From Bacteroidota bacterium (GTDB taxonomy: Bacteria; Bacteroidota; Bacteroidia; J057; JADKCL01), in NCBI GenBank assembly GCA_031375795.1, contig JANMIM010000558.1, positions 1 through 30,470 of the forward strand: a stretch of DNA of 30,470 nt. The letters run 5' to 3'. The translations under genes and the position numbers were made by a program. A model generated the notes under the pieces. It was not told the origin of the DNA. It did no database searches and saw only the letters and a program-made list of their open reading frames with translations. Below, piece by piece: positions 5,554-30,470 of the stretch. Numbering within the stretch: the stretch's first letter is position 1; each line of letters opens with the position of its first letter.

Positions 5554-8500
5554 TCAAAACTTTACAATCCGCACCATTTTCTGGCTCTCATTCACCTGAA
5601 TGTTCACCAGATACACGCCTGCGGCGATCTTATTGTCCAAAACAAAATCCACATGGTAGCGTTGATCCCCAGTGAGTTTACGCTGCGTCACGATCCGGCC
5701 TTGCATATCGATCACCTGGACCTTGGCATCCATGGCTCGCTTCAGGGCAATGTTCACCGCAAAGCTACCCATGTTTGGGTTTGGAAAAACCGCGACATTC
5801 AAAATATCGCCCACGCCGTTCTGGTCTGGCCCTTGATTGTACTTGCCCGAACCATTCACCACCCTGATCGTCTTCACGACGGTGTCGGCGCACCAAGCAT
5901 TGGCGGTGGCCAGGCTCACTTGGTAATAGGAGGTATCGACCAAGGTATCGTTGGCGTAGATGTGCCATGGGTAACTGGTCGAGTCACCCGTGCCGTCCCC
6001 AAAGTCCCAATAGGTCGTGGTGGGCACGGGCGTCGAGAATTCCAAGAAGTAGACGGTATCGCCAGCATTGACGACACTGGCCATGAGGAAGCGTGCTTGC
6101 AAGGCGCTATCGCCCTGATCGACGGTCATGGTGTCGCGGTACACGCAGCCTGCCGAGTCGGTGAGCGCGAGGATGTAATCCCCGGCGGCCACCCCGATGA
6201 GGCTGCTCGTCGTCGCACCATTGTTCCAGGCATAAGTATAGGGCATCGAGCCGCCAAAGGGCGTCACGATGATGGAGCCATCGGCTTGGTCGCGGCAGGT
6301 CACATCGACGATGGTCGATGCAAAGCTCAGGGTCGGCGGCTCGATCACCGTCACGCTGCCGGTCACCGTACAGCCATTGTCATCCGTCACCGTGAGTGCG
6401 TAGCTGCCAGCAGCCAGCGCATTGATGCTGCTCGTGGTGTCGCCGTTGCTCCAACTGAATTGGTAATTGCCAGTACCGCCAGCGACCAAGGCAATGGCAG
6501 CGCCATTGGCATTGCCGCCGCAGTGGACGTCGGTCGCGCTCAGGCTGGCCGTGAGCAAGGTCGGCTCGCCAATCGAGGTGGCAATGCTCGCGGTGCAACC
6601 GAGCGAGTCGGTGACGGCCACGGAGTAATTGCCGGGTGCCAATCCACTCAAGTCCTCGGTGGTCGCGCTGTTGCTCCAGAGGTAGGCGTATGGCAAAGTG
6701 CCACCGGTCGCCGTGAGGTCGATCGTGCCATCGTTGCCACCATTGCAGAGCACGTCGGTGCTGTCGATCGCGAGGCTGATCACACTCGGTTCGCTGATCG
6801 TGGCGCTGTCGATCGTCGCGCATCCACCTTGGTCAGTGACCGTTACGTAATAGGTGCCCGCAATCAATCCGCTCGGATCCTCTGAAATCTGGCCCGAGGA
6901 CCAAACATAGGTGTAGGCTGGCGTGCCACCCGACACGGTCAGGTCGATGCTGCCATCGGTCCCGCCTCCGCAGGAGATATTCACCGCCGTGTTGCTCAGC
7001 ACCAAAGCGGTGGGTTCGATCACGGCAAATGTATCGTTCAAGGTACAGCCATTGCTATCCGTCAAAACCACCGAATACGTTCCAGCGATCAAGGCGCTCA
7101 GGTCTTGGCTCGTCGCGCCATTGCTCCAGAGGTAGGCGTAAGGCAAGATTCCTCCACCGGGAATGAAGTCCACTGCACCGGTCGCGCCGCCAAAGCAGTT
7201 TTCATCCGTCACGATCCCAGCGCTTGTGAGGGCCGTCGGCTCGGTGATCAAATGGCTCAGGAAGGCTTGGCAACCGTCAAATGCGGTCACGGTCAAGTCA
7301 TAAGTTCCGGCGGCAAGGCTCGCAATCGAGAGCGTCGTCGCGCCATTGGTCCAGAGGTAGGTGAATGGCGATACGCCACCAACGAGGCTCACGTTGATGT
7401 CCCCGTCTGCGCCGCCGTTGCAGGAGACATTTGAAGCAGAGTCCAAAGTGACCGTGGGCGCACCCAAGTTGCTCACGGCTGCCGACACGGAGTCGATGCA
7501 GCCGTTGGCGTCGGTGACCAGCACTTTATAGATGCCTGCTGGGATGCCAAAGATCGAATCCAGTGTGCTGCCGACCGTTGGCCAGTTGTAGGTGTACCCG
7601 GGCGTACCGCCAGTGACATGCGCTGCGGCAGAGCCATTGCTCTGCCCGCAGGCGGCGTCCACGGTCGTTGCCGTCACCACGATGGCGCTTGGCTCGGCGA
7701 TGGTCACCGATTGGGTGGCGGTACAGCCGCTGATGTCCGTCACCGTCACGGTGAAACTCCCCGCCCCGATGCCGCTCAGGTCTTCGGTGGTGGCCGCATT
7801 GGACCATTGGTAGGTATAGGCGGGGCTGCCGCCTGTGACGCTCAGGTCGATGCTGCCGGTCGTGCCAGCATTGCAAAGCACATCGACATGGGTCTCGGTG
7901 GCGCTCAGGGTCGTGGGCGGCGTGATCACGTAGCTTGCGATGGTTTGGCAACCGTTGGCGTCGGTGACCGTGATGCCGTAGGTGCCCGCGCCGAGGCCCG
8001 TCACGTCTTGGGTGGTGGCGCCGTTGCTCCAGACATAGCTGTAAGCGGTCGTGCCGCCGCTCACGGAGATGTCGATCTGCCCATTGTTGCCGCTGGAGCA
8101 GCTGATGTTTTGCTGGCTCACGAGGCTGATGCCCAAGATGGCAGGCTCGGTGATGACGCGGCTGTCGGCGAAGTTGCAGCCATTGGTGTCGGTGACCGTC
8201 ACGGAGTAGGTGCCTGGGCCGAGGTTGCTTTGGCTGGATGTCGTGGCACCATTGCTCCACAGGTAGGTGTAGGATGGCGTGCCACCTGTTGCGCTCACGC
8301 CCACGGTGCCGTCTGCGGCGCCGTTGCATGTCACGTTCGTGCGGGCCATCGTGTGGGCGAGCACGCTGGGCTGTGTCACGACTGCGCTCGCATTGGCGAG
8401 GCAGCCGAGGGCATCGGTCACGGTCACGTTGTAGGTGCCGGGGCCGAGGTTGCTGAGATTTTGCGAGGTTGCACTGTTGCTCCAGAGGTAGGTGAATGCG

Positions 8501-10254
8501 GGACTGCCCCCACTCACACTCAAACTCACACTCCCATTTGCGGCGCCGTTGCAGGTGATGTCAGTGGGCGTGGCTGTGGCGCTGATGCTCGGGGCGACGT
8601 TCACCTGTACCGTGTCGGCTGCTTGGCAGCCGTAGGTGTTGGTAACGGTGACCTCATAGGGGCCGGTGACGCCGACGGTGATCGAGGCGACGGATGCGCC
8701 TGTGTTCCAGGCATAGGCCGGGCCGACGTTGCCGGCGTGGCCAGGCAAGGCCGCGTTCAGGAAGGCATTGGTGCCGCCGCAGATGTTGCGGGTGCCGCCG
8801 AGGTTCACGACGGGCGCGGGCGATTTTTCAAAGACAACCGAGTCGCGGTTGGCGCAGCCATTCGCATCGGTGACTTGGACCCAGACGGTGTCGTAGGTCA
8901 CCGTGGTGTCGCTGTGCAGCAGGTTGATGATCTGCGTCGTGGCAGCGGTGCTCCAGAGGAAGGTAGATCCGGCATTGGCGGCATCGAGGGGCTGGGGCAC
9001 ATTGGCGCAGGCGGTGACGGTGTCTTGGCCGAGGGCGAGGTTTACGAAGGGCAGGCCATGGCGCGTGACGATGATCGTATCGCGGTTGATGCAGCCGCGG
9101 TTGTTGGTGATCTCGACCCAGAGCGTGTCGGTGATGTTCACATAAACGGTTTGAGTCGTGGCGCCTGTATTCCAGAGATATGTATAACCCACGCCGCTTC
9201 CTGCATTTAGCAAGACTGAATCACCAGCGCAAAAGCTGGTATCGGCCCCAAGGCTGTCGATTGGAGGATTGGCGCAGTCGAAGTCGGCGATGGTATAACG
9301 CACAGTATCTGACGTGATGCCTTGAATATTCGGCGCGGTGACTTTGGCGAGGTTGGTGTCCACGGTGCTGGTGACAATGTTCCAGGTCGCGCCATCGTCG
9401 GTGGAGCGGAACATGCGCAGATTGCCTTTTTGGCCGTGCCCATTGGTCTCGGTGGTGTCGAGATAGACCGATTGGCCAAAGGCGGCCACGATCGATCCAT
9501 TGCTGTTGCGCACATCGTAATAGCGCTCGATGCTGCCGTCTGCGGCTGTCGCCTGCGAGGAGAAATAGCGCCGCACGAGGACGGAGTCTTGTAGGTTATT
9601 GAAGGTCAATCCCAAACGCGCTGGGCTGCGCAAACTGCTGTTCAGGAACTGCTTTACTTGCAAGTAGCCCGTGCCGCCATAGATCCGATTGATGTCGGTC
9701 TCGCCCACGATCGTGGAGGCCGTGTCCTTGTTGTTGAAAATGATGCTAGCGCTGCCCACATTCAGATCGCCAGTGTTCATTTTCAACTTGTTGAACATGG
9801 TAACTTGGTTGGTGAGATCGACCTTTTGGGTTGCAAGCACCTTGGAGATTTCCAAACTGTAGAAATTGATCTTACCCACGCCGCCCACGAGTTGCGGAAA
9901 GCCTTGGTCGGCCACCACGGCCCCACGCGAGCGCAGCAAGGGATTCAAATCCACGTAGAATGGCAGCTGGGTGAGGTTGTTGTTCAGGAAATTGCCCGTG
10001 AAATACAAAGCAGAGTTGGGCACTTGGTTCAGCTTGCCAGCGCCGGCGTTGTAGATCACATTGCCTTGGGTATAGAGCGTATCGTTGATGCCACTGAGCA
10101 CGATGTCGCCTGCGATGTAGAGATCCACCTGTGAATGCAGAGTGAGTGGGAGCGTGAGAGCGAGTGCGAGGAAAACTCCTCGGAGCCGGGTAACAAGCAG
10201 CCGTATCGTGGGGCGAAGGTATTTCATGGCGATATGTGGGTAGATACCTTTCAA
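5554..10254 (-). CDS. T9SS cargo with type A CTD: N-terminal beta-helix-like region, 3 short Ig-like repeats, 11 SprB-type repeats, 1 PKD
   Basis: Signal peptide ending LHS-Q. Eleven repeats of the form C.G...G.I.L.V.GG..PY.Y.WSNGAT..DL..L.AG.Y.VTVTD..GC. C-terminus VAVFPNPNMGSFAV...VIDMQGRIV...AAGVYLVNIQ...VRIVKF is the type A (Por secretion tail) pattern. The likely start is ATG 10227 (MKYLRP); the track start at 10254 is TTG. Confidence 0.92.
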   Translation of the reverse strand: MKGIYPHIAMKYLRPTIRLLVTRLRGVFLALALTLPLTLHSQVDLYIAGDIVLSGINDTLYTQGNVIYNAGAGKLNQVPNSALYFTGNFLNNNLTQLPFYVDLNPLLRSRGAVVADQGFPQLVGGVGKINFYSLEISKVLATQKVDLTNQVTMFNKLKMNTGDLNVGSASIIFNNKDTASTIVGETDINRIYGGTGYLQVKQFLNSSLRSPARLGLTFNNLQDSVLVRRYFSSQATAADGSIERYYDVRNSNGSIVAAFGQSVYLDTTETNGHGQKGNLRMFRSTDDGATWNIVTSTVDTNLAKVTAPNIQGITSDTVRYTIADFDCANPPIDSLGADTSFCAGDSVLLNAGSGVGYTYLWNTGATTQTVYVNITDTLWVEITNNRGCINRDTIIVTRHGLPFVNLALGQDTVTACANVPQPLDAANAGSTFLWSTAATTQIINLLHSDTTVTYDTVWVQVTDANGCANRDSVVFEKSPAPVVNLGGTRNICGGTNAFLNAALPGHAGNVGPAYAWNTGASVASITVGVTGPYEVTVTNTYGCQAADTVQVNVAPSISATATPTDITCNGAANGSVSLSVSGGSPAFTYLWSNSATSQNLSNLGPGTYNVTVTDALGCLANASAVVTQPSVLAHTMARTNVTCNGAADGTVGVSATGGTPSYTYLWSNGATTSSQSNLGPGTYSVTVTDTNGCNFADSRVITEPAILGISLVSQQNISCSSGNNGQIDISVSGGTTAYSYVWSNGATTQDVTGLGAGTYGITVTDANGCQTIASYVITPPTTLSATETHVDVLCNAGTTGSIDLSVTGGSPAYTYQWSNAATTEDLSGIGAGSFTVTVTDISGCTATQSVTIAEPSAIVVTATTVDAACGQSNGSAAAHVTGGTPGYTYNWPTVGSTLDSIFGIPAGIYKVLVTDANGCIDSVSAAVSNLGAPTVTLDSASNVSCNGGADGDINVSLVGGVSPFTYLWTNGATTLSIASLAAGTYDLTVTAFDGCQAFLSHLITEPTALTSAGIVTDENCFGGATGAVDFIPGGGILPYAYLWSNGATSQDLSALIAGTYSVVLTDSNGCTLNDTFAVIEPTALVLSNTAVNISCGGGTDGSIDLTVSGGTPAYTYVWSSGQISEDPSGLIAGTYYVTVTDQGGCATIDSATISEPSVISLAIDSTDVLCNGGNDGTIDLTATGGTLPYAYLWSNSATTEDLSGLAPGNYSVAVTDSLGCTASIATSIGEPTLLTASLSATDVHCGGNANGAAIALVAGGTGNYQFSWSNGDTTSSINALAAGSYALTVTDDNGCTVTGSVTVIEPPTLSFASTIVDVTCRDQADGSIIVTPFGGSMPYTYAWNNGATTSSLIGVAAGDYILALTDSAGCVYRDTMTVDQGDSALQARFLMASVVNAGDTVYFLEFSTPVPTTTYWDFGDGTGDSTSYPWHIYANDTLVDTSYYQVSLATANAWCADTVVKTIRVVNGSGKYNQGPDQNGVGDILNVAVFPNPNMGSFAVNIALKRAMDAKVQVIDMQGRIVTQRKLTGDQRYHVDFVLDNKIAAGVYLVNIQVNESQKMVRIVKF
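6120..8590 (-). repeat. Array of 11 SprB-type repeats (about 75 aa each, one Cys pair per repeat)
   Basis: Counted in the translation from ISATATPTDITCNG to YRDTMTVDQG; boundaries approximate. Confidence 0.85.
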
Positions 10255-10258
10255 GATC

Positions 10259-11434
10259 TTAGAGCTTGATTATGTAAGCGAGGACGTAGTAGGGCGGGCG
10301 GTTTTCATGCGTTTCGCCGAGGCCCCGGCTATTGGTCGTAAATTGGTGACTGTGCCACCCGTCAGTGACCGTGGATCCATAGCCATTGATGCCACAGCCG
10401 GAGCAGCTTACACTGGACACTGTAATGTTGGTGGAACCCGTGCCTCCACCACCATCATCATACCCAATGCTATGGTCATGCGAGCCATCTGTATCCGTAT
10501 TCCCAGTATGGGTATGCGTGGGCATTTGCGCCGTGGTGAGTGCAATTGAATCCACTCCTCCATTTTTACCGATCGTATTGTATTGAGAAAAATTCTTATC
10601 ACCGTTGGTATAACCGTAGTTGTTGCCATCTCCGTTGGTGAGGCCCACGACGAAGCGGCCACGCAAGTCGGGTGTGCCATTGCGGCCATCGCAGAGCGCC
10701 CAGCCTTCATATTCAGTCCCTGTGACCCCTAAACCACCAGTGAAATTGCCTGAGACAGTGCCTGACCACATAATGATGCCACCTGTGGGCACGACACCTT
10801 CGCCAATGTACTTGGTGGCGGTTACGTTGCCATCTACAAGTACATTGCTATGAAACCGCGCCCTGCTCTTGACATCCAAACCATAGCCTCCAGCGGTGCG
10901 GGTGGCAAGACCGATGCCGACCCAAGTTTGCACGATAATGCTCGAACTATTGGGGGCCACGCTGTCTTGCGTCCAGCTCGCACTGCCAAATGCAGCATTG
11001 CCGACCACCGTGAGCTTGGAGCCTGGATTCACGTTGGCTGCGGTACCAATGCCGACATTGCCGGGCACACCGGAGTAGATGTGCGTTCCCACGACCGGGC
11101 TCGCGCCAGCCACATCCTTGCGGATCCAGTCATGGTCCAGCTCAAACCACTGCCTGGGCGACTGGTGGAAGTAATAATACTTCTGCAAGTCGGTATCGAA
11201 GAAAATGAGGCCGTGGGCAATGTTTTGTGTGCTGTCGAGCACCACGCGGCTTCCCGAACTGATCTTGGGAATGATCAAGCCCTTGTTGTTGCCCGCGCCC
11301 GCCGAGATGTGCAGCATGGCTGAGGGATGGGGCGTGGTGGTGCCGACACCGATTTGGGAATAGACTCCCATATTTACCGTCAAGCATAGGTACAGCAAGA
11401 GAAACGGTGCAATTGAAGATTTGGTGAATTTCAT
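10259..11434 (-). CDS. Exported tail-fibre-like protein: signal peptide, Bacteroidota (V/I)G(I/V)GT fibre region, C-terminal phage tail-collar domain with His-x-His motifs
   Basis: Signal peptide ending VYS-Q. QIGVGTTTPHPSAMLHI...GLIIPKI...GLIFFDTD...YYYF...W. GNVGIGT and VGIGL motifs. Collar pattern VPTGGIIMWSG...GWALCDGRNGTPDLRGRFVVG...GG...L...QMPTHTH...HENRPPYYVLAYIIKL. Confidence 0.85.
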   Translation of the reverse strand: MKFTKSSIAPFLLLYLCLTVNMGVYSQIGVGTTTPHPSAMLHISAGAGNNKGLIIPKISSGSRVVLDSTQNIAHGLIFFDTDLQKYYYFHQSPRQWFELDHDWIRKDVAGASPVVGTHIYSGVPGNVGIGTAANVNPGSKLTVVGNAAFGSASWTQDSVAPNSSSIIVQTWVGIGLATRTAGGYGLDVKSRARFHSNVLVDGNVTATKYIGEGVVPTGGIIMWSGTVSGNFTGGLGVTGTEYEGWALCDGRNGTPDLRGRFVVGLTNGDGNNYGYTNGDKNFSQYNTIGKNGGVDSIALTTAQMPTHTHTGNTDTDGSHDHSIGYDDGGGGTGSTNITVSSVSCSGCGINGYGSTVTDGWHSHQFTTNSRGLGETHENRPPYYVLAYIIKL

Positions 11435-11451: not shown

Positions 11452-13500
11452 TTATTCCGCCACGATAGTCAATGTGATGGGAGCCGACTTGGCAAAATTG
11501 CCAACCTTGTCAAACACCCGAATTTCATAATAATATGTGCTGCCCTTCTTCAAGCCGGTGTCGGTGACTTTGTAATCCTTCACCAGACCTGAAACAGGCA
11601 GAAATTGATCTTTTCCTTCCTTGCGATAGACCATGCAGCCGATCACGTCGTCGCTCTTGGGCAATGTCCAAGTGATCGTGGCGTCGGGCTTGCCTTTGGC
11701 ATGCTTGATCTCGATGTCTTGCGGTACCGCCTTCACCCGCATGGTGGTCACGCTGCCCATGAATGCCTGCGATTTCCCAGAGCGATTGCCTGCATTGTCG
11801 AAAGATTGCACACAGTAATAATAGCTCACACCAGCCTCGATGTTGCGGTCGGCATAAGCTGTGTCTTTGGCGCCCAACGGTCGCTCCATGAGCGGTTTCC
11901 AAATACTGTCTGGACCCGACTCTTTGGTGGAACGGTACACAATATAGCCCGCCAAATCAGACTCCATGCCGGGCAGCCACACGATGCGCAGCGACTCAGC
12001 CTCCTTGCGGATGCTCTTGACGGTCGGCGTTTGCGGTGGCTCCGGGTCGGGCAAGATGGCCATCGCAGGTGCGCTCATCACGCTCTGGTTGTAGCTCGTA
12101 TCGACGGCCTTCACGAAGTACACGAATTGGTTTTTGGCAACCTTGGGCAAGGTGTCGTTGTAGGCAGCGGTGGTGAGGGCGGCCGGGGTGACGAGGATGG
12201 TATCGCCCTGGATCGTCGTCTTGGCCATGCGGTACACAAGGTAGCCAGCCAGGTCCTTTTCCGGATTGGGAAACCACGTGAGCTTGATCACGCCCGTGTC
12301 GGCAACTGCCTTGAGGTTGCGCACTGCGACGGGCGGCTTGATGTCAAAGACTTGGATCGAGCGGCCTTCTGTGCGGTTTTCATTGCCGGCTTTGTCGAGG
12401 GTGCCGATGGCGTAGGTATAGGCGACGCCGACCTCGGGCACGGTTTCCTCATACTTGCGCAGGCTCACGGCGAGCGGCTGCTTGTTGAGCTTGGTGAAGA
12501 CGCTGTCGCTGCCATTGAGGCGGTAGATGTTGAAGCCTTCGACGCCTTTGGCGTTGGGGAGGTCCCAAGTGGCGGTGACTTTGTCGACCGCCACTTGCAG
12601 CTCAAACTTGCTCACTTGCGCGGGCGGCGTCTTGTCGACCGGCGTGAGCTTGACCTCGCTGCTCGCCTCGGTTTCGAAACCAAAGAAGTCCACGCCCTTG
12701 ATCATGCAGGTATAGGTGGTGCCGTTTTGGAGGCTGTCTGCGAAAAAGAGCCATTCGGCAAATTTGGCTTCACCGCCTTTTTGGGGCACTTTGCTCGGCA
12801 GGATGATCTTTCGGTTGAAGCGCTGCCAGCTTCCGCCGCCGATTTTGTAATAGATGTGTGCCCCGGTGAGCCGCGTTTGGTCGGGATTCCAGGAGAAAAA
12901 CAGCTTGCCGTCGCCTTCCTTCGTTCTTAACTCGGTCGGGGCTGGGCCGCGCTGCAATTTGCCTGCTTTCACATAGCCCGATTGGCCGTAGCTGATCTCT
13001 GATCCGCCTGCGACTTCCTTGACCTCGTAGCGGTATTCTTTGCCGGGCTGGGCGCTCTTGTCGTGGTAAATGATGCCGAGGTAATTGGAAAATTCGCGGC
13101 TCTCGACGGCGTTGGTGAGGACCAAGGCGAGGCCGATGCCTTCCAATTTGTCTTTCTCCCGCATGCCGTCGGCGAGTTCCTTGGTGCGCTTGAGACCGGG
13201 ATTTTGGGCAATGGCGGCACTCATGTCGGCTTGGCCGTAAGTGAATGGCGCCGAATTCAACAGCTTCCATTCCCCTGCACCTGCCTCCTGCCGGTAAATA
13301 TTGATCCCGTTTTTGCTCTTGAGATTGGGTTCGGTCCAGCGCACCCACACACCACCGTCGTCGGGCATCGCCAAGACCTTACGCTGCCCATAGCCCGCCT
13401 GTGCCAGCAAAACCAGCAGCACCGCAACCCCAATATGTTTCAAAACGCCATTCATTGTCTTCTTTTCAGACTGCTGCTTTCGAGCAATCGTTTTTCGCAT
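11452..13500 (-). CDS. Exported fibronectin type III repeat protein (about 6 FN3-like domains), no T9SS CTD
   Basis: Repeated PP..P..L......V.L.W ... G[YF].[IV]YR ... Y.D......Y.Y.V...D...N.S patterns. Hydrophobic stretch IGVAVLLVLLAQAGYG-Q. ATG 13500 overlaps the upstream TGA (TGATG); ATG 13455 is the alternative. The track start is 13509. Confidence 0.88.
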   Translation of the reverse strand: MRKTIARKQQSEKKTMNGVLKHIGVAVLLVLLAQAGYGQRKVLAMPDDGGVWVRWTEPNLKSKNGINIYRQEAGAGEWKLLNSAPFTYGQADMSAAIAQNPGLKRTKELADGMREKDKLEGIGLALVLTNAVESREFSNYLGIIYHDKSAQPGKEYRYEVKEVAGGSEISYGQSGYVKAGKLQRGPAPTELRTKEGDGKLFFSWNPDQTRLTGAHIYYKIGGGSWQRFNRKIILPSKVPQKGGEAKFAEWLFFADSLQNGTTYTCMIKGVDFFGFETEASSEVKLTPVDKTPPAQVSKFELQVAVDKVTATWDLPNAKGVEGFNIYRLNGSDSVFTKLNKQPLAVSLRKYEETVPEVGVAYTYAIGTLDKAGNENRTEGRSIQVFDIKPPVAVRNLKAVADTGVIKLTWFPNPEKDLAGYLVYRMAKTTIQGDTILVTPAALTTAAYNDTLPKVAKNQFVYFVKAVDTSYNQSVMSAPAMAILPDPEPPQTPTVKSIRKEAESLRIVWLPGMESDLAGYIVYRSTKESGPDSIWKPLMERPLGAKDTAYADRNIEAGVSYYYCVQSFDNAGNRSGKSQAFMGSVTTMRVKAVPQDIEIKHAKGKPDATITWTLPKSDDVIGCMVYRKEGKDQFLPVSGLVKDYKVTDTGLKKGSTYYYEIRVFDKVGNFAKSAPITLTIVAE

Positions 13501-16500
13501 CAATAACATCTGTCTGGATCCTCAGGGAAGCTCACCGAGCCATTCTTGACCTCGACCCCGACCGTGAGACCGATTCCGGAGCCCAAAATGCTCACTTCAC
13601 CATGAAGCTTGCCAGCCATGCACAAGTTGTCGTTGATCTTGAAGCTGAGTTCGCCGCTTACATTGACTGAGGCAAATTCATAGCTGTCGGTCACGCCCAG
13701 GGCTGTGACATCCACCCCGGCCGAGGCACCTGCGTCTGCTGAGATCGAGCCAAAGATTGCGGGATCATCAAAAGAGAGCCCGATTTCGGCGGCCACATCG
13801 AGGTGCGCCTTGGCCCAAAAATCGATCGAGCCGATACCTGCATCAAAGCCCCCACTGGTCTCCGCATGCTTGTTGATCTCGCCATGGGCCAGCAAGCCCG
13901 AGGGCCGCGCCTTGATGTAGCCACTGCTGCTCAAGGCACTGATGCAACCCAGCTCCACCTCCAGTGGATTGTTTCGGGTGCCGACATCGATGGCCCAATC
14001 ACTGCGAGAGAAAAAGCCGTCGATCTTGCCCTTGGCGCAGATGGGCTTGATCGTGCCGAAATCGGTCTTCACCGACCCCGACTCTCCCTCTAGGTGAAAC
14101 TCCATTTTCTTCTGCTGCGGATAGATCTCCATTCCCCCAAAACCACGTGCGAGGTAGGAGGAATTCGGATCCAAGCGATACGTGAAGAACCAGCCGTTGC
14201 CGTCCATCGCGATCTTGCTCACGGCGCCGCTGTTTTGCACTTCCACCCGCAAGCCTGCCATGAACATCCATTGGTACATGTTTTCAGGCAAGCCGGGGAT
14301 GCTCGGAATCGGAGGAAGATTGGGCATCGGCGGCAGGTTGTAATTGGGCAACTTGATCTTGCAGAGCGCCAAGTCATCGACCAATTTGAGGTCGCAGATG
14401 CTCGGGATGTCGATGTTGAGGCCGATGCTGCATAGCTTTTTGCTGGAGCCATCGGGCATCTTGAGCTCCATGTCGCAGATATTGGGGAGGCTCGGGAGCA
14501 GCTTGCGCCAGTTGATGTTGCACAACGGCGGCTCCTGCCCATTCAGCGGATTTTTCAGGTCGCAATACTTGAAGCTGATGTTACACAACTTGCGGTTGGA
14601 ATTGGGCCACTTCAAGTCGCAGAAGTTGAAATTGGGCCAGTCGATGTCGAAGATGCTCATCTGGCAGAACTTCTTGCCCGAGATCGGCTCCTCGAGGTCG
14701 CAGAAATTGGGGATGAGGTCGCAAGGCTTCTCGTCGGTGAGCGGGAAGCGCAGGTCGCAAAACTTGAAGTTCACGTTGCAGAGCGACTGCCCATTGACCT
14801 TCCAATCGCAGACATTCGCATTCGGCCAATCGACTTCCCACCACTTGACCTCGCAAAGCGGCACCTGCTGAATAGCGCCATTGCGCATCACGGGCACGAT
14901 GATGTCGCACCAGTTGGCGGTGATGGCGCAGAGCTTGGTCCCATTGGGCAAGCGAAAGTCGCAGGGATTGGGCACGTCGGGGAAAATGTCGGGCCAGCTC
15001 CAATCGCAGAAGACGGAGTGACCGCCAGCCTGGCTCACGAATTGGCAGAGGTCGACTTTGGGGATGATGTCGCCGACGCTGAAGTTGCAGAGGGGCTTGA
15101 TGCCGGGAAATTTCCATTCGCAAACCGGTGGCAGCGTGGGCATGAGGTTGCACAGCTTCTTGTTGCACAGGGGGCCGTTGGCATCCTTGATGTCGCAAAA
15201 CTTGCCGCCGATGTCAAAAAATTCGCAGATGCCCGAGCCGTTGGGCAGCTTGAGGTCGCAGATATTGATCTCCGAGAATCCCAATTCGCCGAGCGTGTAG
15301 TCGCCCAGTTTCTTGCCGCTGGCAAGGCGCAAGTCGCAAAACTGCAACTGTGGCCAATTCACCTTGAAGAGATCGACATCGCACCAGCTTTTGGTTTTGA
15401 TGGCGCCATTGTCCAAGTAGGGCACGTGGATGTCGCAAAGGCTCAGGCCTTCCCATGGCCACCGAATGTAGGAACAGACGCTCTTGCCCTTGTATTGCAG
15501 GTCGCAAAGACCGGGAATGTTGGGCATGATGTCGCCGATGCTCGGCAGGCCCTCGGTGATCTTGATCGGGCCGCTTTTTTGTTTTTTGCCGCTCGGCGTG
15601 TCGTGCAGGCCGAGCTTGCCATACATGCCGAGTGCCACGCCGGGTGTCACGACCAATCCGTCGATGCAATTCACGCCATTGGCGGCGGCATTCAGGTTCC
15701 AGAAGTCATTGAATTGGTTGGGCTTGGCAAATGCCATGCCGGTTGGCGCTGCCAAATTGTGGTAGGCCTGAAAGTCAAAGCCATTGAGCGAAAATGCCGG
15801 GTAGGATTCGATCACTTTGTTGAGGCCCTGAGCGGCGCAACGCAGGTACCAGAATTTAGTCCCGTTGTTTTGAGAGATCACCACACGGGCCGTGGCTACA
15901 ATCGGATCGGGCTGCTTCACCATGATATTGCCCTTGGCCTCAAACCGGGTTCCAAACACAGGGTCATCGTCGATGTAATCTGCAAACACATCCATGTCCA
16001 CGAGGCTATTGCTCATCACGAGCTTGATCGGCCCGATCCTGAACTTGGCTGATTTGGCCTTGCCATCCACGCGTGTATAGACGATGTTGGGGGCGGCGGC
16101 ACCGCCTGTACCCGCCACAGAAACCTTTATGGGCGCGCCCGGGCAGGTGATGCCACCCGGCAGACTCACTTGCGTGAACATCGTGAAGCCGTAAACGCCG
16201 TTTTCATAAAAGGCACCCACCGCATCGGCCACGCCGCTCATTCCGCCGAGGCTCACAGGCACTTGTGTCGCCAGATCACGCTTGCCATTGGGCTCATTGA
16301 AACCGATCTCGTTGTTGCCCCAGACCTTGAGACCAGGGGCATGATCGAGCTTCACCTGCATTTTGGGCCACTCCAAGTCCACATTCATCTTGATGTGGTC
16401 GCCACCTTCAAACACCGCTTGATTGATGTCGAGCTTCACCTTGCTCAAGGTGTCGAGCGGATTGTAGGTCTTGGAAAATGCCTTGAGCGAGTCCTCATTG

Positions 16501-18908
16501 AAATAAGCCCCTTGAATGCCATTGCCAGCAATCGGTGCTACCCAGTCGAGTTTGCGCTGCGCATCCAAAAAAGGCACCTTGAGAAAGCCAATAAATCTAC
16601 TGTCGCTGAGCGAATTGTCTTCGATTTTCAGGCGCAAGCTGGAAAACTTGCCCTGAAAGGTATTGATGCGCGCATAATAGGGCGCCGCGTTGCTGTTCTC
16701 AAAAGCTGCGGTCAAGTCCAGGTTGAGTCCACCTGCCGTGATCCAAGAGGGCTGGAAGCCTGGCGAACTCGAGACGTAGGTGAGCACCTGCTGCTCCGTG
16801 AGGCTCAGTTGGTTTTTTTCGTCAAAATCGGTGGGTAAGAAAATGTTGTACTCTGTGATGTACACCCCCACCCAGTCTGGCTGACCTGAGAAAATCCCCG
16901 CAGGCGACTGCCCGCCCGAGAAATCGACCACAAAGCTCTTGGGCTGCAAGGTCATCTTGGTCGCAGAAAACAGGACGAGTTTCTCGCCGCCTGCCTGCCG
17001 CTCCACGACCATGTACCATGGATTGGAGACATTTTCAAACGGCACGGAAAATGGATCGCCCGACACCGTCTTGAGATTGCCGGGGAAATAGACATTGCCG
17101 GCCATTTTCAAGGTCGTGACACCGCCTGGCGCGACGATGAACTGCGAGGGTGCCTTGTATTTGACCTTGAAGCCCATGGGAATCAAGAGGTCATAACTTT
17201 GGTTTTCGGCAAATGCGACCGCGCCGCTCAAGATTTTGTTCAGGTAATTGAGGCGCACATTTTCAGCGGAGATGACCATGGCATTGCCCGGCGCATTCAC
17301 CGACAAGGGAAAACGCCACTTTACTTGGCCTTGGGCCAGAAACTCCATCGACGTGAGCACCCAGGCATTGATTTCATAGTTGCCCTCGCCATAGTCACCA
17401 AAGTCCAGCTCCTTGCTCTCAGTGCGTGGAATCACGACCTCACCGACCTTGAGTACCCATTTGTTGGCGACCATCTCGACCGTGAGGCCGCTGTAGCTCA
17501 CCTCTGTCGGCTGCTCGCCCGTTGCCAAGACAACCTTGCCCGTGCCGGAGAGGTTGCTGTACTTGGTGGAGCTCACTTTCGTGACGCTGCTGGTATTTTC
17601 TACCGTGATCATATAGGCGCCATCGGCCACCCAAAATGAATACACGACAGGTGGCGCCTTGAACTCCCATATCTCAGACTTGGCGGTCTTGAAGCCATCG
17701 GTGCTCGACTTCACCTGCCAGGCATAGTAGGCATCGGGTTCCAGCGGCTGCTCCACTGTGAGGGAACCGCCATAGATGTTGGGCATGATGTCGGTGGAGT
17801 CGTCATACCACACGCCTTGGGTGCGCGTCATGTAGGCAGCGGCAGCGGCTTGGTTGGTCACGCGCTCGCCTGCGGCAAGTTTCACGACCTTGATGTGGTA
17901 CTTGAGCTGCTGACCTGCCGTGGCATTGCTGGGGCCTCCCCACGCAAAATCAACCTTTTCGGGGTCATCGACGCGCACTTGGTGGGCGGGTGCCGTGAGG
18001 TCGATGGTGCCGTCGTTGCTGTAACCGTAGGTAAACCAGCACACAGGCGCCTTGCCGTCGTTTTCAAAGGTCGTGAGGCCATTCACATCCACCACGCGGA
18101 TCTGGAAGGCATATTTTTGGTTCAGGTCCAGCGGCAATTGCTCGGGACCGTAGGTGAAGCTCGTAGAATTGATCTCCAGCCAATCCAGGATCGGGAACGA
18201 GGTGCCGTTGATGGCATCGTTTTCGTTCATGCCAGCGGGCACCTGCACGAGCTTCATTTCGTAGCGCACCTGGATCGAGGGGTCGTGCATCGGGATCCAG
18301 TTGAACTGGATGTTTTGGCCGCCTGCTGCGGAGATCACGGCGCCGCACTGAGGCGTCACCAGCTGTGGCGGATTGTTTTGGATCAGGGTTGCGGTGTAGC
18401 AACCCGGCAGTGCGAAGGCGATCTCGCGGCCTGCGTCGAGGACCTCGACGCAAAAGGTATAGGTGCCTTCAGGAAGGCGGCCGGCATTCACCAAGTCGTT
18501 TTTGTTGGTGCCCAATACATCCATCTTGCTGAAATCGAGGAGTTGCTCGATTTGCACGGCGTCGATGAGGTTGGGGCCGGGTGTGAGCGTCACCGTTTGA
18601 TAGTATTGACGCGAGGTCTTGAGGACCAAGCCATTGCCCTCAATCGATAGGCGGATTTTGGCATCCCAGGAGGGTTCTGATTGATCCAGAAAATTCACGT
18701 TGAGGAGGATGCGTTCCTGCCCAGGCTGCATCAGGTCGGTGAGGTAGGGTGAGTAGGGCGGCTGCACCGTGAGCTGAATGACGGCTGGATACGTCTGAGC
18801 GCTTACGCGCAGTGAGAGTGCGAGAGTGAGCGCGAGGATGGACGCTGCTACAAAGCCAACTTTGCTGAGCTTGAAAAGCGAGGGGATATGTCGTGCAGGC
18901 ATTCTCAT
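13500..18908 (-). CDS. Large exported TANFOR-domain-like protein with FN3-like domains, a beta-rich body and a Cys-rich repeat insertion
   Basis: Signal peptide ending VSA-Q. YPAVIQLTVQPPYSPYLTD...LPEGTYTFCVEVLD...NNPPQLVTP...FNWIP...FTYGP...L...KYAFQIRV...FENDG matches my recollection of TANFOR (TIGR02542) N-termini. No T9SS CTD; the protein ends PEDPDRCY. Confidence 0.8.
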   Translation of the reverse strand: MRMPARHIPSLFKLSKVGFVAASILALTLALSLRVSAQTYPAVIQLTVQPPYSPYLTDLMQPGQERILLNVNFLDQSEPSWDAKIRLSIEGNGLVLKTSRQYYQTVTLTPGPNLIDAVQIEQLLDFSKMDVLGTNKNDLVNAGRLPEGTYTFCVEVLDAGREIAFALPGCYTATLIQNNPPQLVTPQCGAVISAAGGQNIQFNWIPMHDPSIQVRYEMKLVQVPAGMNENDAINGTSFPILDWLEINSTSFTYGPEQLPLDLNQKYAFQIRVVDVNGLTTFENDGKAPVCWFTYGYSNDGTIDLTAPAHQVRVDDPEKVDFAWGGPSNATAGQQLKYHIKVVKLAAGERVTNQAAAAAYMTRTQGVWYDDSTDIMPNIYGGSLTVEQPLEPDAYYAWQVKSSTDGFKTAKSEIWEFKAPPVVYSFWVADGAYMITVENTSSVTKVSSTKYSNLSGTGKVVLATGEQPTEVSYSGLTVEMVANKWVLKVGEVVIPRTESKELDFGDYGEGNYEINAWVLTSMEFLAQGQVKWRFPLSVNAPGNAMVISAENVRLNYLNKILSGAVAFAENQSYDLLIPMGFKVKYKAPSQFIVAPGGVTTLKMAGNVYFPGNLKTVSGDPFSVPFENVSNPWYMVVERQAGGEKLVLFSATKMTLQPKSFVVDFSGGQSPAGIFSGQPDWVGVYITEYNIFLPTDFDEKNQLSLTEQQVLTYVSSSPGFQPSWITAGGLNLDLTAAFENSNAAPYYARINTFQGKFSSLRLKIEDNSLSDSRFIGFLKVPFLDAQRKLDWVAPIAGNGIQGAYFNEDSLKAFSKTYNPLDTLSKVKLDINQAVFEGGDHIKMNVDLEWPKMQVKLDHAPGLKVWGNNEIGFNEPNGKRDLATQVPVSLGGMSGVADAVGAFYENGVYGFTMFTQVSLPGGITCPGAPIKVSVAGTGGAAAPNIVYTRVDGKAKSAKFRIGPIKLVMSNSLVDMDVFADYIDDDPVFGTRFEAKGNIMVKQPDPIVATARVVISQNNGTKFWYLRCAAQGLNKVIESYPAFSLNGFDFQAYHNLAAPTGMAFAKPNQFNDFWNLNAAANGVNCIDGLVVTPGVALGMYGKLGLHDTPSGKKQKSGPIKITEGLPSIGDIMPNIPGLCDLQYKGKSVCSYIRWPWEGLSLCDIHVPYLDNGAIKTKSWCDVDLFKVNWPQLQFCDLRLASGKKLGDYTLGELGFSEINICDLKLPNGSGICEFFDIGGKFCDIKDANGPLCNKKLCNLMPTLPPVCEWKFPGIKPLCNFSVGDIIPKVDLCQFVSQAGGHSVFCDWSWPDIFPDVPNPCDFRLPNGTKLCAITANWCDIIVPVMRNGAIQQVPLCEVKWWEVDWPNANVCDWKVNGQSLCNVNFKFCDLRFPLTDEKPCDLIPNFCDLEEPISGKKFCQMSIFDIDWPNFNFCDLKWPNSNRKLCNISFKYCDLKNPLNGQEPPLCNINWRKLLPSLPNICDMELKMPDGSSKKLCSIGLNIDIPSICDLKLVDDLALCKIKLPNYNLPPMPNLPPIPSIPGLPENMYQWMFMAGLRVEVQNSGAVSKIAMDGNGWFFTYRLDPNSSYLARGFGGMEIYPQQKKMEFHLEGESGSVKTDFGTIKPICAKGKIDGFFSRSDWAIDVGTRNNPLEVELGCISALSSSGYIKARPSGLLAHGEINKHAETSGGFDAGIGSIDFWAKAHLDVAAEIGLSFDDPAIFGSISADAGASAGVDVTALGVTDSYEFASVNVSGELSFKINDNLCMAGKLHGEVSILGSGIGLTVGVEVKNGSVSFPEDPDRCY
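14361..15506 (-). repeat. 16-unit C[DEQ]x(8-16)C paired-cysteine repeat (residues about 1135-1516, 32 Cys)
   Basis: Example units: CDLQYKGKSVC, CDLKLPNGSGIC, CDFRLPNGTKLC, CDWKVNGQSLC, CDLEEPISGKKFC, CDLKWPNSNRKLC, CDLKLVDDLALC. Counted by hand. Confidence 0.9.
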
Positions 18909-18911
18909 AGC

Positions 18912-20582
18912 TCAAAAGTTGAAGGAATAACCGATCGTACCGCGCATTTCGGAGAGCTTCGTCGCATTGGTCGCGTAGGCCGACTTCCTCAGGAAATCGA
19001 TGCTGGCTGTGATGCCATGGTGCTCACCGACTTTATAGTTGCCATTGAGGCGGTTGGTCCACACGGTCGAGCTCAAGGCGGCATCGTTGAATACCGATTG
19101 AAACGATGTACGGAACGTCAATTTTGCTTTTTTCTTCAATAATCCCTTCGACACACCAAATGTCGGCCCCATGAAGGTCGTGGTCGTGCCCGGCAAAATC
19201 GTGTGGGTATAGCTCAGCATCGTGTTGAAGTCCAAGCCGAGCGATTTTTTCTTGAGTGTGTGGGCCAAGGCGACATTGTAGAAATCGGTGGCGCTCTCGG
19301 GCACGATGCTGTATTCCTTGCGTCCCACTGCGTTTTGGTAGCTTACATTGCCGCTCAGGCTCTGCTTGGCATCGTCTCCACCAAAGCTATGCATCGCATT
19401 GAAGGCGGCATTGCGGGTGACTTGGTAGAAGTTGAGCGAGTCGGTGAGAATGTTTTGGTCCACCTTGAGGAAGGAGCTGAAGTTGGAGCCGTTCAAGCTG
19501 AAGTTCCAATCTTGGCTGGGGGCGAAGCCGACATTCGCGCTGTAGATAAGGCGGCTGTTGCGGGTGGCTTTGATCTGGGCGAGGTCGTTGCGCTGCCCTC
19601 CGACGCTGGCACTCAGGCTCACCTTTTGCTTGAAGAGTGAGGTGGAGCCGTTCAAGGTCGCGTCCTCGACGTCGTTGTTGAAGAAGTAGGCGCCGAGCGT
19701 GCGGTAGTCGGTGTCGATGTGCTTGTACTTGAGCGCCAGGTTCCATGCCTTGGCCTTGTAGCCAATCTTGCCTTGGTAGGCCGCGTGGCTTGCCGAGCCG
19801 CTGCGCTGCTGGAAAAATGGGCCGAAATAGGCGAGGCTGCTGCCGCCTTCGAGGCTCGCGACCGGCCCGCGGATGTCGCGGGTGATCGCGCTCTGGGCAT
19901 ATTCGGCCTCGATGTCGAGCTTCTTGCCCAGTTTTTTCTTGCCCTTGATGCCCATGACCAAGCCCTGTTCCGGAGTAACGTCGGCACTGGCGACCGGTGT
20001 CGCAATGGAGTTGATTTGGTCTTTTGCGGTGAAAATGGAGCCCTCGATGCCGTTGCCATTCTTCTCATAGCCGACCATGAGGCCGACGCCCATGCGCTTG
20101 TAGGCAGTGGTGGCACCATTGGCGAGGGCCTCGGCCTCCTCGATGGGTTTCCTGAAACGACCTGCCATCGCCGAGATTTTCCAATTCTTGGGTGTAAGGT
20201 CCACCCCGCCGCCCAAGAAAGTATGCCCTGCGAGCGTAAAGTCGCTGAAGGTCATGCTGCGCCACCCAATATGGGTCGTGATCCACTTGTATTTTGGGGA
20301 AATGCCGACTTGGTTGAAGGGCTGGGTGAAGCCGGCCTGTTGCTGACTGAAGCTGGCGCTGAAAGGTGCATCGATCACCCCGAGGAGTTTCAGGTTGAGA
20401 TTGGCTTGGAGTGCGTAGGTGAATGGTGGACGGCGACTCGGTGCCCCAAATGCCGTGTAGAAGCCTGTATTGATGTTTGCACCCCCTGAAATCTTAAGCG
20501 GATGCTTAAAATCGAACTCTTGCGCCCAGAGGGAGCTGGTGCACAAGAGTAACAGAAATACTATGAAGTAACTTCGTTTCAA
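18912..20582 (-). CDS. Outer-membrane beta-barrel protein of unknown function
   Basis: Signal peptide ending LWA-Q. Alternating hydrophobic/aromatic strands throughout. C-terminal IGYSFNF with a terminal Phe (BAM beta-signal type). TTG start; 3 nt separate its stop from the TANFOR ATG. Confidence 0.82.
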   Translation of the reverse strand: MKRSYFIVFLLLLCTSSLWAQEFDFKHPLKISGGANINTGFYTAFGAPSRRPPFTYALQANLNLKLLGVIDAPFSASFSQQQAGFTQPFNQVGISPKYKWITTHIGWRSMTFSDFTLAGHTFLGGGVDLTPKNWKISAMAGRFRKPIEEAEALANGATTAYKRMGVGLMVGYEKNGNGIEGSIFTAKDQINSIATPVASADVTPEQGLVMGIKGKKKLGKKLDIEAEYAQSAITRDIRGPVASLEGGSSLAYFGPFFQQRSGSASHAAYQGKIGYKAKAWNLALKYKHIDTDYRTLGAYFFNNDVEDATLNGSTSLFKQKVSLSASVGGQRNDLAQIKATRNSRLIYSANVGFAPSQDWNFSLNGSNFSSFLKVDQNILTDSLNFYQVTRNAAFNAMHSFGGDDAKQSLSGNVSYQNAVGRKEYSIVPESATDFYNVALAHTLKKKSLGLDFNTMLSYTHTILPGTTTTFMGPTFGVSKGLLKKKAKLTFRTSFQSVFNDAALSSTVWTNRLNGNYKVGEHHGITASIDFLRKSAYATNATKLSEMRGTIGYSFNF

Positions 20583-20946: not shown

Positions 20947-21648
20947 CTAGCGCTTCCTCGCTTGTATCCACGCGAGGACTTCCTCTCTCGCAGACCTGGT
21001 CACGACGATGTCCATGCCATCGACCGTGACGGTATGGGCGTTCACGGCATCGACGTGCTTGAGTTGCACGATTGCGCTGCGATGCACGCGCAAGAAGCCG
21101 GGAGGAAGCTTTTCCTCCCATGCATGTAGGCTCTCGCGCACAATGAGGGGCGGGGCGCCCTTGCGATGCAGCTCGACATAGACGCGGTCGGCCTGGAGCA
21201 ATGTGATCTCGCCGTAAATGACTTTTTTGAGCTGCGTGCCGACCTTCACAAAAGTATGGTCGCCCAAGGGATTGGGCGCTGCATTGGCCAGCGCGACCTC
21301 GATGCCCGCATGAATGTCACTCGGCTTGAATGGCTTGACCAAAAACCCGGCGGGATGGGCGTCGGTGGCCCGCTGGATCGTGCCGCTGTCGGAATGGGAG
21401 GTGAGGAAAAGGTAAGGAATGCCGTACCGCGCCTGAATCTCGTGGGCCAATGCGATGCCATCCATGCCCTGCCCCAAGGTGATATCAAGCAGCGCCAAGT
21501 CAGCCCCGCCATCCGCCAAGATCTGTAGCGCCTCCTCGGCATCAAAGGCATGGCCCGCGACCGCATAACCCAAGCCGCTGAGGATCTGCATCAGGTTTTG
21601 GGCAATGATAAACTCATCCTCTACGATCAAGATGCGCTTGCTGCTCAT
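20947..21648 (-). CDS. LytTR-family response regulator (REC + LytTR)
   Basis: ILIVEDE, DLALLDI (phospho-Asp), FLTS and FLVKPF receiver motifs. C-terminal FLRVHRSAIV LytTR motif. ATGA overlap with the kinase stop. Confidence 0.95.
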   Translation of the reverse strand: MSSKRILIVEDEFIIAQNLMQILSGLGYAVAGHAFDAEEALQILADGGADLALLDITLGQGMDGIALAHEIQARYGIPYLFLTSHSDSGTIQRATDAHPAGFLVKPFKPSDIHAGIEVALANAAPNPLGDHTFVKVGTQLKKVIYGEITLLQADRVYVELHRKGAPPLIVRESLHAWEEKLPPGFLRVHRSAIVQLKHVDAVNAHTVTVDGMDIVVTRSAREEVLAWIQARKR

Positions 21649-23729: not shown

Positions 23730-23876
23730 TTGTTGCAAAATACAGCTTTGTTCCAACAAATTGAACCCCAAGCGCCAAACTCCACGCATCCCGAAGCCGA
23801 TTCTGCCGCATTCATTCCCTGGTATGCTGTCAAGGCTAAAATCAGGGTTTTCTTCCTCCTCGCAAACTTTGGTTGC

Positions 23877-23967
23877 CGCGCCGAAGGTGCCGTCTCTGGG
23901 TAGCCGGATGCGTAAGCGTCCGGTGAAAGTGCCATCCAAAGTGTTACGCGCCGAAGGCGCCGTCTCT
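23877..23967 (+). repeat. 21-nt direct repeat pair (20/21) enclosing a GTAG-hairpin REP-like element
   Basis: CGCGCCGAAGG[T/C]GCCGTCTCT at 23877-23897 and 23947-23967. GTAG-CCGGATGC-GTAA-GCGTCCGG at 23900-23923. Confidence 0.6.
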
Positions 23968-24052
23968 TTTTCAAAGTCGCCTTTTAGCCTTGACACGACA
24001 CTAGAGTCGTGTCAAGTTCAACACAGGCGTTTCAACAAGAAATGGTTTGTTG

Positions 24053-24293
24053 GCAACCATCCGCCAAACCCCATCTTGATTCACCACCGTGTCGATGCGA
24101 GTTTGGCGGATGGTTACATCTATTCCCTGCACGGAACAGCCAAACTCAACGGCATCGACCCGCAAGCCTGGCTGACAGAAACCCTCTCCAAAATATCGGA
24201 TCACACCATCAACGTGATCGCAGAACAGCTGCCCATGGCCAAGGTGTAAACCTTTGCGGGACTTTTAGTAGATGGGGTTGGGCGGATGGTTAC
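24053..24293 (+). mobile_element. Degenerate IS66-family remnant / MITE-like element with terminal inverted repeats
   Basis: 24053-24075 GCAACCATCCGCCAAACCCCATC matches the reverse complement of 24271-24293 at 21/23. A second right-end copy lies at 24101-24117 (16/17). No 8-bp target duplication found. Confidence 0.75.
24118..24249 (+). pseudogene. tnpC: C-terminal fragment of IS66 transposase TnpC
   Basis: IYSLHGTAKLNGIDPQAWLTETLSKISDHTINVIAEQLP matches the IS66 C-terminal pattern YSLI.TAKLNG.DP.AWL..VL..I..H....I.ELLPW. No start or upstream domains. Confidence 0.85.
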
Positions 24294-24415
24294 AGCATTG
24301 TGGGAACTATCTTGAGTTTTTTCAGGAACGGGCTGAGATTCTTTGGGATGTTTTGCGTAGGGTGAATCAGCCGTATTGAGGTTTTTGCCGACTTTACTTT
24401 AATACTTTCCACGCA

Positions 24416-24434
24416 AAGCCCCACGATGGGGCTT
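24416..24434. terminator. Hairpin AAGCCCCA-CGA-TGGGGCTT, possible terminator for the minus-strand 181-aa gene
   Basis: Perfect 8-bp stem about 120 nt downstream of the stop codon; the U-tract is weak. Confidence 0.35.
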
Positions 24435-24473
24435 CGTGTCTTAGCCTAAGTTCCATAGAAGTTATTTTGAATC

Positions 24474-24541
24474 TCCCAACGACTCGGCTAAATGTAGTAG
24501 CTGACTAATGGAGGCTGTTGATATTTTAGCTTCCGTTATAC
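24474..24541 (-). other. attC-like imperfect inverted repeat immediately downstream of the 181-aa gene
   Basis: Minus strand GTATAAC-GGAA-GCTAAAAT...ATTTAGC-CGAGTC-GTTGGGA. AAC/GTT cores each have one mismatch to the RYYYAAC/GTTRRRY consensus; inner arms pair with a one-base bulge. Confidence 0.35.
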
Positions 24542-24554
24542 ATGGGCTTCTTTT

Positions 24555-25100: not shown

Positions 25101-25186
25101 TTTTATGTACTTTTCATGTTTAAAAAAGCTCTTTTGAAAAATGCGATTTTGATTTTCATACTACAACATTGGTTTCTACAACCTTT

Positions 25187-28156: not shown

Positions 28157-28161
28157 AGGTG

Positions 28162-30213: not shown

Positions 30214-30459
30214 CTAATACTTCTTTATTAGGTTCTGATTCGTTGATAAACCCGTCCTTTGGTTTAAAGCAACTTTACTGTTGGGTTCTAGCTGATTTTG
30301 AGTATGAGCCAAAACGCTCCAGCGCACCGCGCATTTTGTGTGAAGCGGCCTTTGCAAAACACCCAGATAAACGAAACTTCGTTCCATGTCCCAAATGTAG
30401 CTAACCCAGCCAAAAAATCATATCTACATGCGTTAATCTCGCCAAAATCGCCTGACAAC

Positions 30460-30467
30460 CAAAACTA
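30460..30467 (-). promoter_or_regulatory. Possible -7 box (TAGTTTTG) upstream of mod
   Basis: TAnnTTTG match about 250 nt upstream of the mod ATG. The -33 region is outside the window. Confidence 0.25.
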
Positions 30468-30470
30468 AAG

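Follow-up and report, generated by a model that had tools for sequence, protein, structure and literature searches.

Short repeats held together by disulfides are known from the Tenebrio antifreeze beta-helix, with its 12-residue TCT repeats, and from granulin, with its stacks of hairpins. Cystine-ladder beta-hairpin peptides such as theta-defensins and tachyplesins have mirror-image Cys spacing and nested bridges, and in two-partner secretion and contact-dependent inhibition (CDI) systems a TpsB barrel goes together with a giant TpsA protein that has an N-terminal secretion domain. Here, we analyse a window of 30,470 nucleotides from an uncultured Bacteroidota bacterium (assembly GCA_031375795.1, contig JANMIM010000558.1, positions 1 to 30,470), i.e. 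the whole stretch of DNA to whose positions all coordinates below refer, and within it an array of paired-Cys repeats in a giant exported protein, P0001, which appears remotely related to TANFOR proteins. TANFOR proteins of Bacteroidetes are treated as polymorphic toxins, and SprB, fn3, PKD and Por_Secre_tail proteins (the last with a type IX secretion system, T9SS, C-terminal domain, CTD) are enriched near TANFOR genes (Jana, Salomon & Bosis 2020, PMC7073777). The word "cysteine" is absent from that paper, so the repeat is not described there.

The block in P0001 is a genuine, previously undescribed repeat for which no relative could be detected by sequence or by fold, and only a few uncultured Bacteroidota have it; in its general kind, it belongs to the Cys-braced extracellular repeat modules. 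Our favoured explanation, to which we assign a probability of roughly 60%, is that it comprises 16 disulfide-stapled mini-loop repeats of a new family, forming a structured arm of fixed length that sits on Pro-rich hinges in a C-terminal hairpin of a remotely TANFOR-like exported giant protein; what we infer here are the disulfides and their pairing between adjacent Cys, the shape of the arm as a whole, its location at the surface and its role. The gene and its parts, from the N- to the C-terminus of the product, are as follows:

13500..18908, minus strand: gene for the giant exported protein P0001 (1802 aa), carrier of the repeat (open reading frame list and translation)
18798..18908, minus strand: Sec signal peptide, residues 1-37 (by inspection of the translation; basic n-region, hydrophobic core, A-Q junction)
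18027..18842, minus strand: N-terminal region, residues 23-294, remote kin of TANFOR-type N-termini (BLASTP to P0039)
15600..15638, minus strand: outgoing strand of the host beta-hairpin, residues 1091-1103, VALGMYGKLGLHD (aligned to the block-less homologues P0035-P0037, where the return strand follows ~30 aa on)
15507..15599, minus strand: N-side hinge, residues 1104-1134, Lys/Gly- and then Pro-rich (translation; not present in block-less homologues)
14361..15506, minus strand: repeat array of 16 paired-Cys units with 32 Cys, residues 1135-1516 (Cys count, motif, conservation, AlphaFold2)
15303..15338, minus strand: unit 3 (C1191...G1202), with Gly in place of the second Cys in the P0001 lineage (homologue alignment)
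15150..15152, minus strand: extra Cys, C1253 (Ser in P0006 and P0007)
15087..15122, minus strand: unit 6 (C1263...C1274), both Cys lost jointly in P0007 (homologue alignment)
14265..14360, minus strand: C-side Pro-rich hinge, residues 1517-1548 (translation; predicted local distance difference test, pLDDT, <50 at model residues 397-417)
13503..14264, minus strand: conserved beta-rich C-terminal domain, residues 1549-1802, starting with the return strand of the host hairpin (kept in block-less homologues)

Cysteine accounts for 32 of the 382 residues of the block (8.4%) vs 11 of the 1420 residues elsewhere in P0001 (0.77%; binomial P = 8.6e-23), and the interval 14361-15506 runs exactly from the first block Cys (C1135) to the last (C1516). 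The residue before the Cys is L, F, I, V, W or Y in 30 of the 32 cases, the residue after it is D, N, E, Q or S in equally many (D in 17), and the position after that is hydrophobic in 31; both the Cys enrichment and the regularity of the motif are far beyond chance. Consecutive pairs of Cys define 16 units with loops of 10-18 residues and linkers of 6-15 residues that are rich in W, F, P and N. The unit consensus is Φ-C-D-Φ-x-Φ-P-x-G-x-x-Φ-C (Φ, hydrophobic) with a loop near C-D-L-K-L-P-N-G-x-K-L-C, and unit length is irregular, ranging from 17 to 33 residues (about 24). The long units 2 and 9 match each other better than any other unit. Tandem Repeats Finder reported no DNA-level tandem repeat in the block of the P0001 lineage or in that of P0030, a divergent relative from a sister genus, and the units of P0001 are therefore old and diverged. 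Much of this pattern had already been noticed in an initial annotation made from the window alone: its 16 units with 32 Cys in about 380 aa and a stereotyped motif are confirmed by the Cys count and the motif tally, the unit without a second Cys and the single extra Cys that leave the total even correspond to G1202 and C1253, and the higher-order duplication that it proposed among the units is recovered as the reciprocal best match of units 2 and 9. Likewise, the Pro-rich hinges that it placed on either side of the block are present in the translation and have low pLDDT.

The annotation had found no named family for the repeat, and this still holds, as there is no significant Pfam, NCBIfam or PDB sequence match and no fold match. 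Searched alone against Pfam and NCBIfam at E<=10, the block returned only noise, the best being DUF7771 (E 0.01, 16 bits; cut-off 27). This candidate, seen in the W-linker region at E 0.01 in both P0001 and P0030, was rejected as it was not reproduced at genome scale and also occurred in unrelated control genomes. Searching PDB sequences gave nothing meaningful, whether the query was the single protein or a profile, an ESM Atlas feature search with the block gave no usable match, a scan of Joint Genome Institute metagenome contigs with the block alignment found no relative, and a word-indexed search with the block profile among proteins of 230-730 aa found the fragment P0029 only. An exhaustive phmmer/HMMER search of the block against 1.84 billion representatives recovered two clusters, its own family and P0029. 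A hidden Markov model built from the units, a step already proposed in the annotation, matched just the two paralogues when the window's own genome was searched in all six translated frames. In a sample of 400 Bacteroidota genomes, the sole match was in G171 (E 4.6e-4, ~70 aa, with an internal stop) and is probably due to chance, while in 40 genomes of relatives the block was found in one bacterial family only, in two genera. A pattern scan of 185,579 species genomes yielded three loci, all of them in metagenome-assembled genomes of Bacteroidota. P0047 was considered as a second carrier and rejected, having a different, denser Cys pattern with 5 matching motifs only; this protein of 3536 aa (202 Cys, many CxC and C-x5-6-C spacings) has a related N-terminus and is another Cys-rich elaboration in the superfamily.

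Full-length homologues of P0001 (n=7) are 1778-1808 aa long. A second full-length copy of the giant gene is present in the same genome (P0031/P0005; G000 contig C103, L012:1197-6698, minus strand), and this paralogue shares 62% identity with P0001 in the block and likewise has 32 Cys. Block identity among the full-length homologues is 54-93%. Only three of the 32 Cys vary among 8 homologues, the other 29 being invariant, and the P, G and W positions of the block are conserved as well. The mean pairwise identity amounts to 0.59 at non-Cys block positions, 0.60 in the C-terminal domain and 0.72 in the N-terminal 1000 residues. Since the Cys are invariant and identity is on a par with that of the C-terminal domain, the alignment indicates that the block is a constrained folded element under purifying selection and not a hypervariable one.

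The departures from this invariance speak for a pairing of sequence-adjacent Cys. In P0007, positions 1263 and 1274 are P and L, so both Cys of unit 6 are gone and 30 remain. The 1202 column holds Cys in P0006, P0007, P0029, P0030 and P0034, and the 1253 column holds Ser in P0006 and P0007 and a gap in the sister-genus sequences P0029, P0030 and P0034. C1202 and C1253 are thus exchanged reciprocally, which leaves an even number of Cys, with C1253 compensating for the lost C1202. Disulfide partners at sequence-adjacent Cys would give rise to just such changes as this swap and the joint loss in P0007. Further, equally indirect support comes from the C-x9-10-C loops of P0030, constant in length, and from local hairpins in the structural model. 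In the P0001 lineage, the same columns suggest a pairing of C1191 with C1253, so that units 3 and 5/6 would touch.

Comparison with block-less homologues (n=4) places the array within the host protein. These are P0032 from another species of the same genus (G401), P0035 from Fulvivirga, and P0036 and P0037 from Saprospiraceae, the last three having been found by a family profile search. All of them retain the C-terminal domain and both flanking strands, i.e. ...YGKLGLHD on the N-terminal side of the block and ...AGLRVEV on its C-terminal side, which are aligned across block-bearing and block-less homologues. The flanking strands are separated by 444 residues in P0001, 441 in P0030, 85 in P0032 and 31-33 in P0035-P0037. 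Because the block-less homologues keep these strands at short separation, the array with its two hinges occupies a hairpin turn within the C-terminal domain, and the insertion into the host protein that the annotation had postulated is borne out by the alignment, with the block absent from P0032 and P0035-P0037. The arm-less P0032 (L013:5107-9375, G401) carries two long acidic low-complexity runs of poly-Glu/Gly, one of which occupies the loop immediately ahead of the hairpin into which the Cys arm is inserted in P0001. P0033 (2821 aa; L014:765-9230, G407) has ~1500 extra residues of a different, Cys-poor, beta-rich repeat; it was considered as evidence for an insertion hotspot at the same site and rejected, as the extra residues follow the hairpin and are not in its turn.

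An AlphaFold2 model of the block based on an alignment of 10 sequences reached a mean pLDDT of 77.5 and a predicted template modelling score (pTM) of 0.62, while a single-sequence prediction of residues 1100-1560 was useless (pLDDT 31). In the array region, pLDDT is mostly 70-92, and in both hinges it is <50 (~40 over the first 10 model residues in the N-side hinge), with the Pro-rich stretches at about 1120-1134 and 1526-1542 forming the low-confidence ends of the model. Most Cys are modelled in a recurring motif of a bridge residue, a three-residue 3-10 turn over Φ-C-D and a second bridge. Only units 2 and 9 are modelled as long two-stranded beta-hairpins, each lying exactly between the unit's own two Cys. 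The string of disulfide-closed beta-hairpins envisaged in the annotation is thus upheld in part: closure between adjacent Cys fits the compensated changes, but most loops are too short, and hairpins are restricted to units 2 and 9. Structure searches of the PDB with Foldseek (best E 3), and of AlphaFold Database (AFDB) clusters (best E 0.8, template modelling score, TM, about 0.07), the ESM Atlas (TM <=0.24) and BFVD (E>=1) gave no match. No structural match to solved or predicted folds, including beta-solenoids, hairpin stacks and EGF/TNFR-like folds, was found in these searches, which were weakened by the 417-residue, probably elongated model. The lack of fold matches suggests an elongated, non-canonical architecture, and a new fold would not be proven by it.

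Several points weigh against our favoured explanation. Three of the five AlphaFold2 models had a pLDDT of 52-58 and only two about 77, with an alignment of just 10 sequences. The disulfides themselves are proposed from two compensated Cys events in a small sample. Moreover, six genomes of the bacterial family that were searched yielded neither DsbB nor VKOR, and a DsbA-like Thioredoxin_4 was not found in the window's own genome, the sole genome searched for it; the usual periplasmic oxidation pathway is therefore not evident. In favour of our explanation, the window's genome encodes one exported DsbA-family candidate with a CSSC motif; a stronger DSBA-family match there is without signal peptide.

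Under the reading of 16 stapled mini-loops, each unit of about 24 residues would be a short loop closed by a disulfide between its own two Cys, from which an aromatic/proline linker would lead on to the next Φ-C-D motif. Array and hinges are a lineage-specific insertion of about 440 residues in a beta-hairpin turn. After export, the array would most likely fold into a structured, disulfide-stapled projection, the arm, standing off the host domain on flexible hinges. Its role would likely be mechanical or contact-making, as a stiff, protease-resistant extension or a binding surface, and not catalytic. The array resembles the Tenebrio antifreeze protein and granulin in general terms, as short repeats with one or more disulfides each, whose structure depends on these and not on a large hydrophobic core; it differs from them in its irregular units (17-33 residues), its motif and the lack of a PDB sequence or fold match.

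The divergent block of the sister genus was identified in P0030 (1789 aa) by a genome search within the bacterial family and has 32 Cys in 16 units as well. Its loops are all C-x9-10-C, its linkers comprise 6-19 residues, and the array is organised as a 4 x 4 super-repeat, A A' B B', with 59-62% identity between copies and a period-4 translational symmetry that was matched by 0 of 20000 shuffles. The units of P0001 and P0030 are not colinear, and the arrays of the two lineages were remodelled independently with 16 units in both. The variable length of the arm presumed in the annotation was not borne out, as all nine complete block-bearing sequences that were aligned and examined (P0001-P0008, P0030) have 16 units with 30-32 Cys. 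A constraint on array length, resting on two lineages, is possible. The identical unit number in two genera with non-colinear arrays also leads to a bolder and more tentative version, which we regard as a low-probability prospect: that of a new fold, a self-supporting rod or plate of 32 stacked Φ-C-D-Φ 3-10 turns with 16 local disulfides, whose unit count would be fixed at 16, in spite of duplication and replacement of single units, as a molecular ruler setting the reach of a TANFOR-like surface or toxin-delivery tip.

The mini-loop reading has to be weighed against one in which the bridges link different units, either by joining a unit's second Cys to the first Cys of the unit that follows or as nested out-and-back rungs, giving a zipped rod. 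The ends of an arm inserted in a hairpin turn must meet, which a fold-back rod satisfies; the probable long-range pair C1191-C1253 implies a contact of units 3 and 5/6; and a pTM of 0.62 implies a defined global arrangement. However, the Cys spacing is not mirror-symmetric, with fractions of 0.59 (P0001) and 0.30 (P0030) of shuffles being equally symmetric, and P0030 has the translational period-4 symmetry instead (0/20000 shuffles). In this the array differs from the cystine-ladder beta-hairpins, as its spacing is not mirrored and bridging of sequence-adjacent Cys is what the evidence favours. Moreover, the two Cys lost jointly in P0007 are neighbours in sequence and belong to a single unit, in P0030 it is the loops that are constant in length and the linkers that vary, and the model shows units 2 and 9 as local hairpins, each between the unit's own Cys. 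Taken together, we consider inter-unit bridging unlikely.

A metal-binding array, in which thiolates, perhaps with the neighbouring Asp, would coordinate Zn, Fe or Cu, is less probable still. It would account for 32 conserved Cys that mostly have Asp next to them, for a total that equals 8 x 4 alongside the four-unit super-repeat of P0030, and for the failure to detect DsbB and VKOR. Yet there is no CxxC, CxC or His-containing knuckle anywhere in the block, whose Cys are spaced 5-26 residues apart, nor any match to a metal-binding family. The protein is exported, P0007 with its 30 Cys would be left with a half-site, and the aromatic/Pro linkers and PxG turns suggest structural loops.

We give very little credence to the block being a diverged member of a described Cys-rich repeat or solenoid family (EGF/TNFR-like, granulin-like hairpin stacks or insect antifreeze beta-helices). 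Small disulfide-braced repeats are common in extracellular proteins, and the weak top rows of the AFDB search are Cys-rich proteins (TNFR-Cys, Dickkopf, disintegrin); against this, the block alone has no significant Pfam or NCBIfam match even at E<=10, the PDB profile search was without meaningful match, and DUF7771 (E 0.01) vanished at genome scale. A compositional or low-complexity oddity, i.e. a disordered Cys-rich spacer, might be read from the Pro-rich, low-confidence hinges and the acidic low-complexity stretch nearby in the homologue P0032, but it is scarcely credible given invariant Cys, conserved P, G and W positions, a pLDDT of 77.5 from just 10 sequences and a block about as well conserved as the flanking C-terminal domain.

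The host protein itself had been termed TANFOR-like in the annotation, a label that holds only as remote homology. P0001 does not match TIGR02542 (TANFOR), neither as a whole protein at E<=0.01 nor with residues 1-450 at E<=10. Its residues 23-294 align with residues 5-283 of P0039 (BLASTP E 1e-29, 30% identity). The TIGR02542 scores of relatives are 34.5 bits for P0039 (residues 28-163), 24.8 for P0042 and 15.8 for P0035, with a cut-off of 67; P0042, a more distant relative reached by profile search, is named TANFOR domain-containing in UniRef. P0001 thus resembles the TANFOR toxins (PMC7073777) in being large, with a Sec signal and an N-terminus of ~270 aa that is homologous to proteins with weak TANFOR matches, and its operon resembles TANFOR neighbourhoods in having SprB-repeat, fn3, PKD and Por_Secre_tail proteins. 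Unlike TANFOR toxins, however, it has no C-terminal toxin or immunity domain recognisable with Pfam or NCBIfam, and the gene downstream encodes an fn3 protein.

Pfam and NCBIfam scans of the whole of P0001 gave no significant match. Residues 1540-1802, which cover the C-terminal domain, were likewise without Pfam or NCBIfam match, a profile search of the PDB with that domain found nothing, and an ESM Atlas feature search returned unnamed Bacteroidota clusters only. An outer-membrane barrel was considered for this domain, prompted by a terminal F in some block-less relatives. Given its signal peptide, P0001 leaves the cytoplasm, with cleavage probably after VSA and before Q (VSA-Q). Predicted signal peptides of P0001, P0030, P0032, P0033 and P0049 share the A-Q ending (e.g. 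VSA-QT, WA-QE); Gln directly after the cleavage site is a known habit in Bacteroidota. P0001 has no T9SS sorting domain of type A (TIGR04183) or type B (TIGR04131/CHU_C), while two downstream genes have one. These and the other neighbouring genes in the window are:

18912..20582, minus strand: P0049 gene (556 aa), 3 nt upstream of the giant gene, with a signal peptide and a C-terminal ...GYSFNF
5554-10254, minus strand: SprB-repeat protein that has a type A T9SS tail, at the operon's downstream end
528-5540, minus strand: PKD-repeat protein that has a type B CHU_C tail, at the operon's downstream end
3-512, minus strand: PorP/SprF gene, downstream end of the operon
28162-30213, minus strand: Mod of a type III restriction-modification system (683 aa)
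25187-28156, minus strand: Res of a type III restriction-modification system (989 aa)

To judge from its sequence features, P0049 is a probable outer-membrane beta-barrel, with no Pfam or NCBIfam family match. A gene for 575-590 aa occupies the same position in G401, G406 and G407, which hints that P0049 might be a dedicated export or anchoring partner of the giant protein. The arrangement is reminiscent of two-partner secretion and CDI, as in each of the four loci examined a probable barrel gene (~556 aa) directly precedes the giant gene, whose product has an N-terminal domain that is conserved. It differs in that there is no POTRA/ShlB or TPS-domain match, and the analogy concerns the host protein, not the repeat.

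The combination of a type B substrate with PorP/SprF at the downstream end of the operon is a usual pairing. A further operon protein of 391 aa (10259-11434, minus strand) matches the C-terminal domain of phage baseplate Gp10, though below threshold (E 3e-5, 25.4 bits; cut-off 27). A LytTR response regulator and a TPR-containing histidine kinase are encoded directly upstream of the operon (20947-23996, minus strand) and are possible regulators of it. At 24000-30470, where the type III restriction-modification genes are located, GC content drops from about 56-60% to about 39-43%, and horizontal acquisition of this segment, as an island, is probable.

TANFOR-type giant proteins have recently been recognised as a class in Bacteroidota. 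The reach of our finding is limited by a repeat that was found in few uncultured genomes only. A single genus offers versions of this protein that have the 440-residue arm and others that lack it, which amounts to a clean natural experiment. Furthermore, the neighbouring genes provide a testable link between a dedicated barrel gene and a giant protein. A new small, probably disulfide-braced repeat with a confident model and no structural neighbour could also serve as a compact, stable scaffold.

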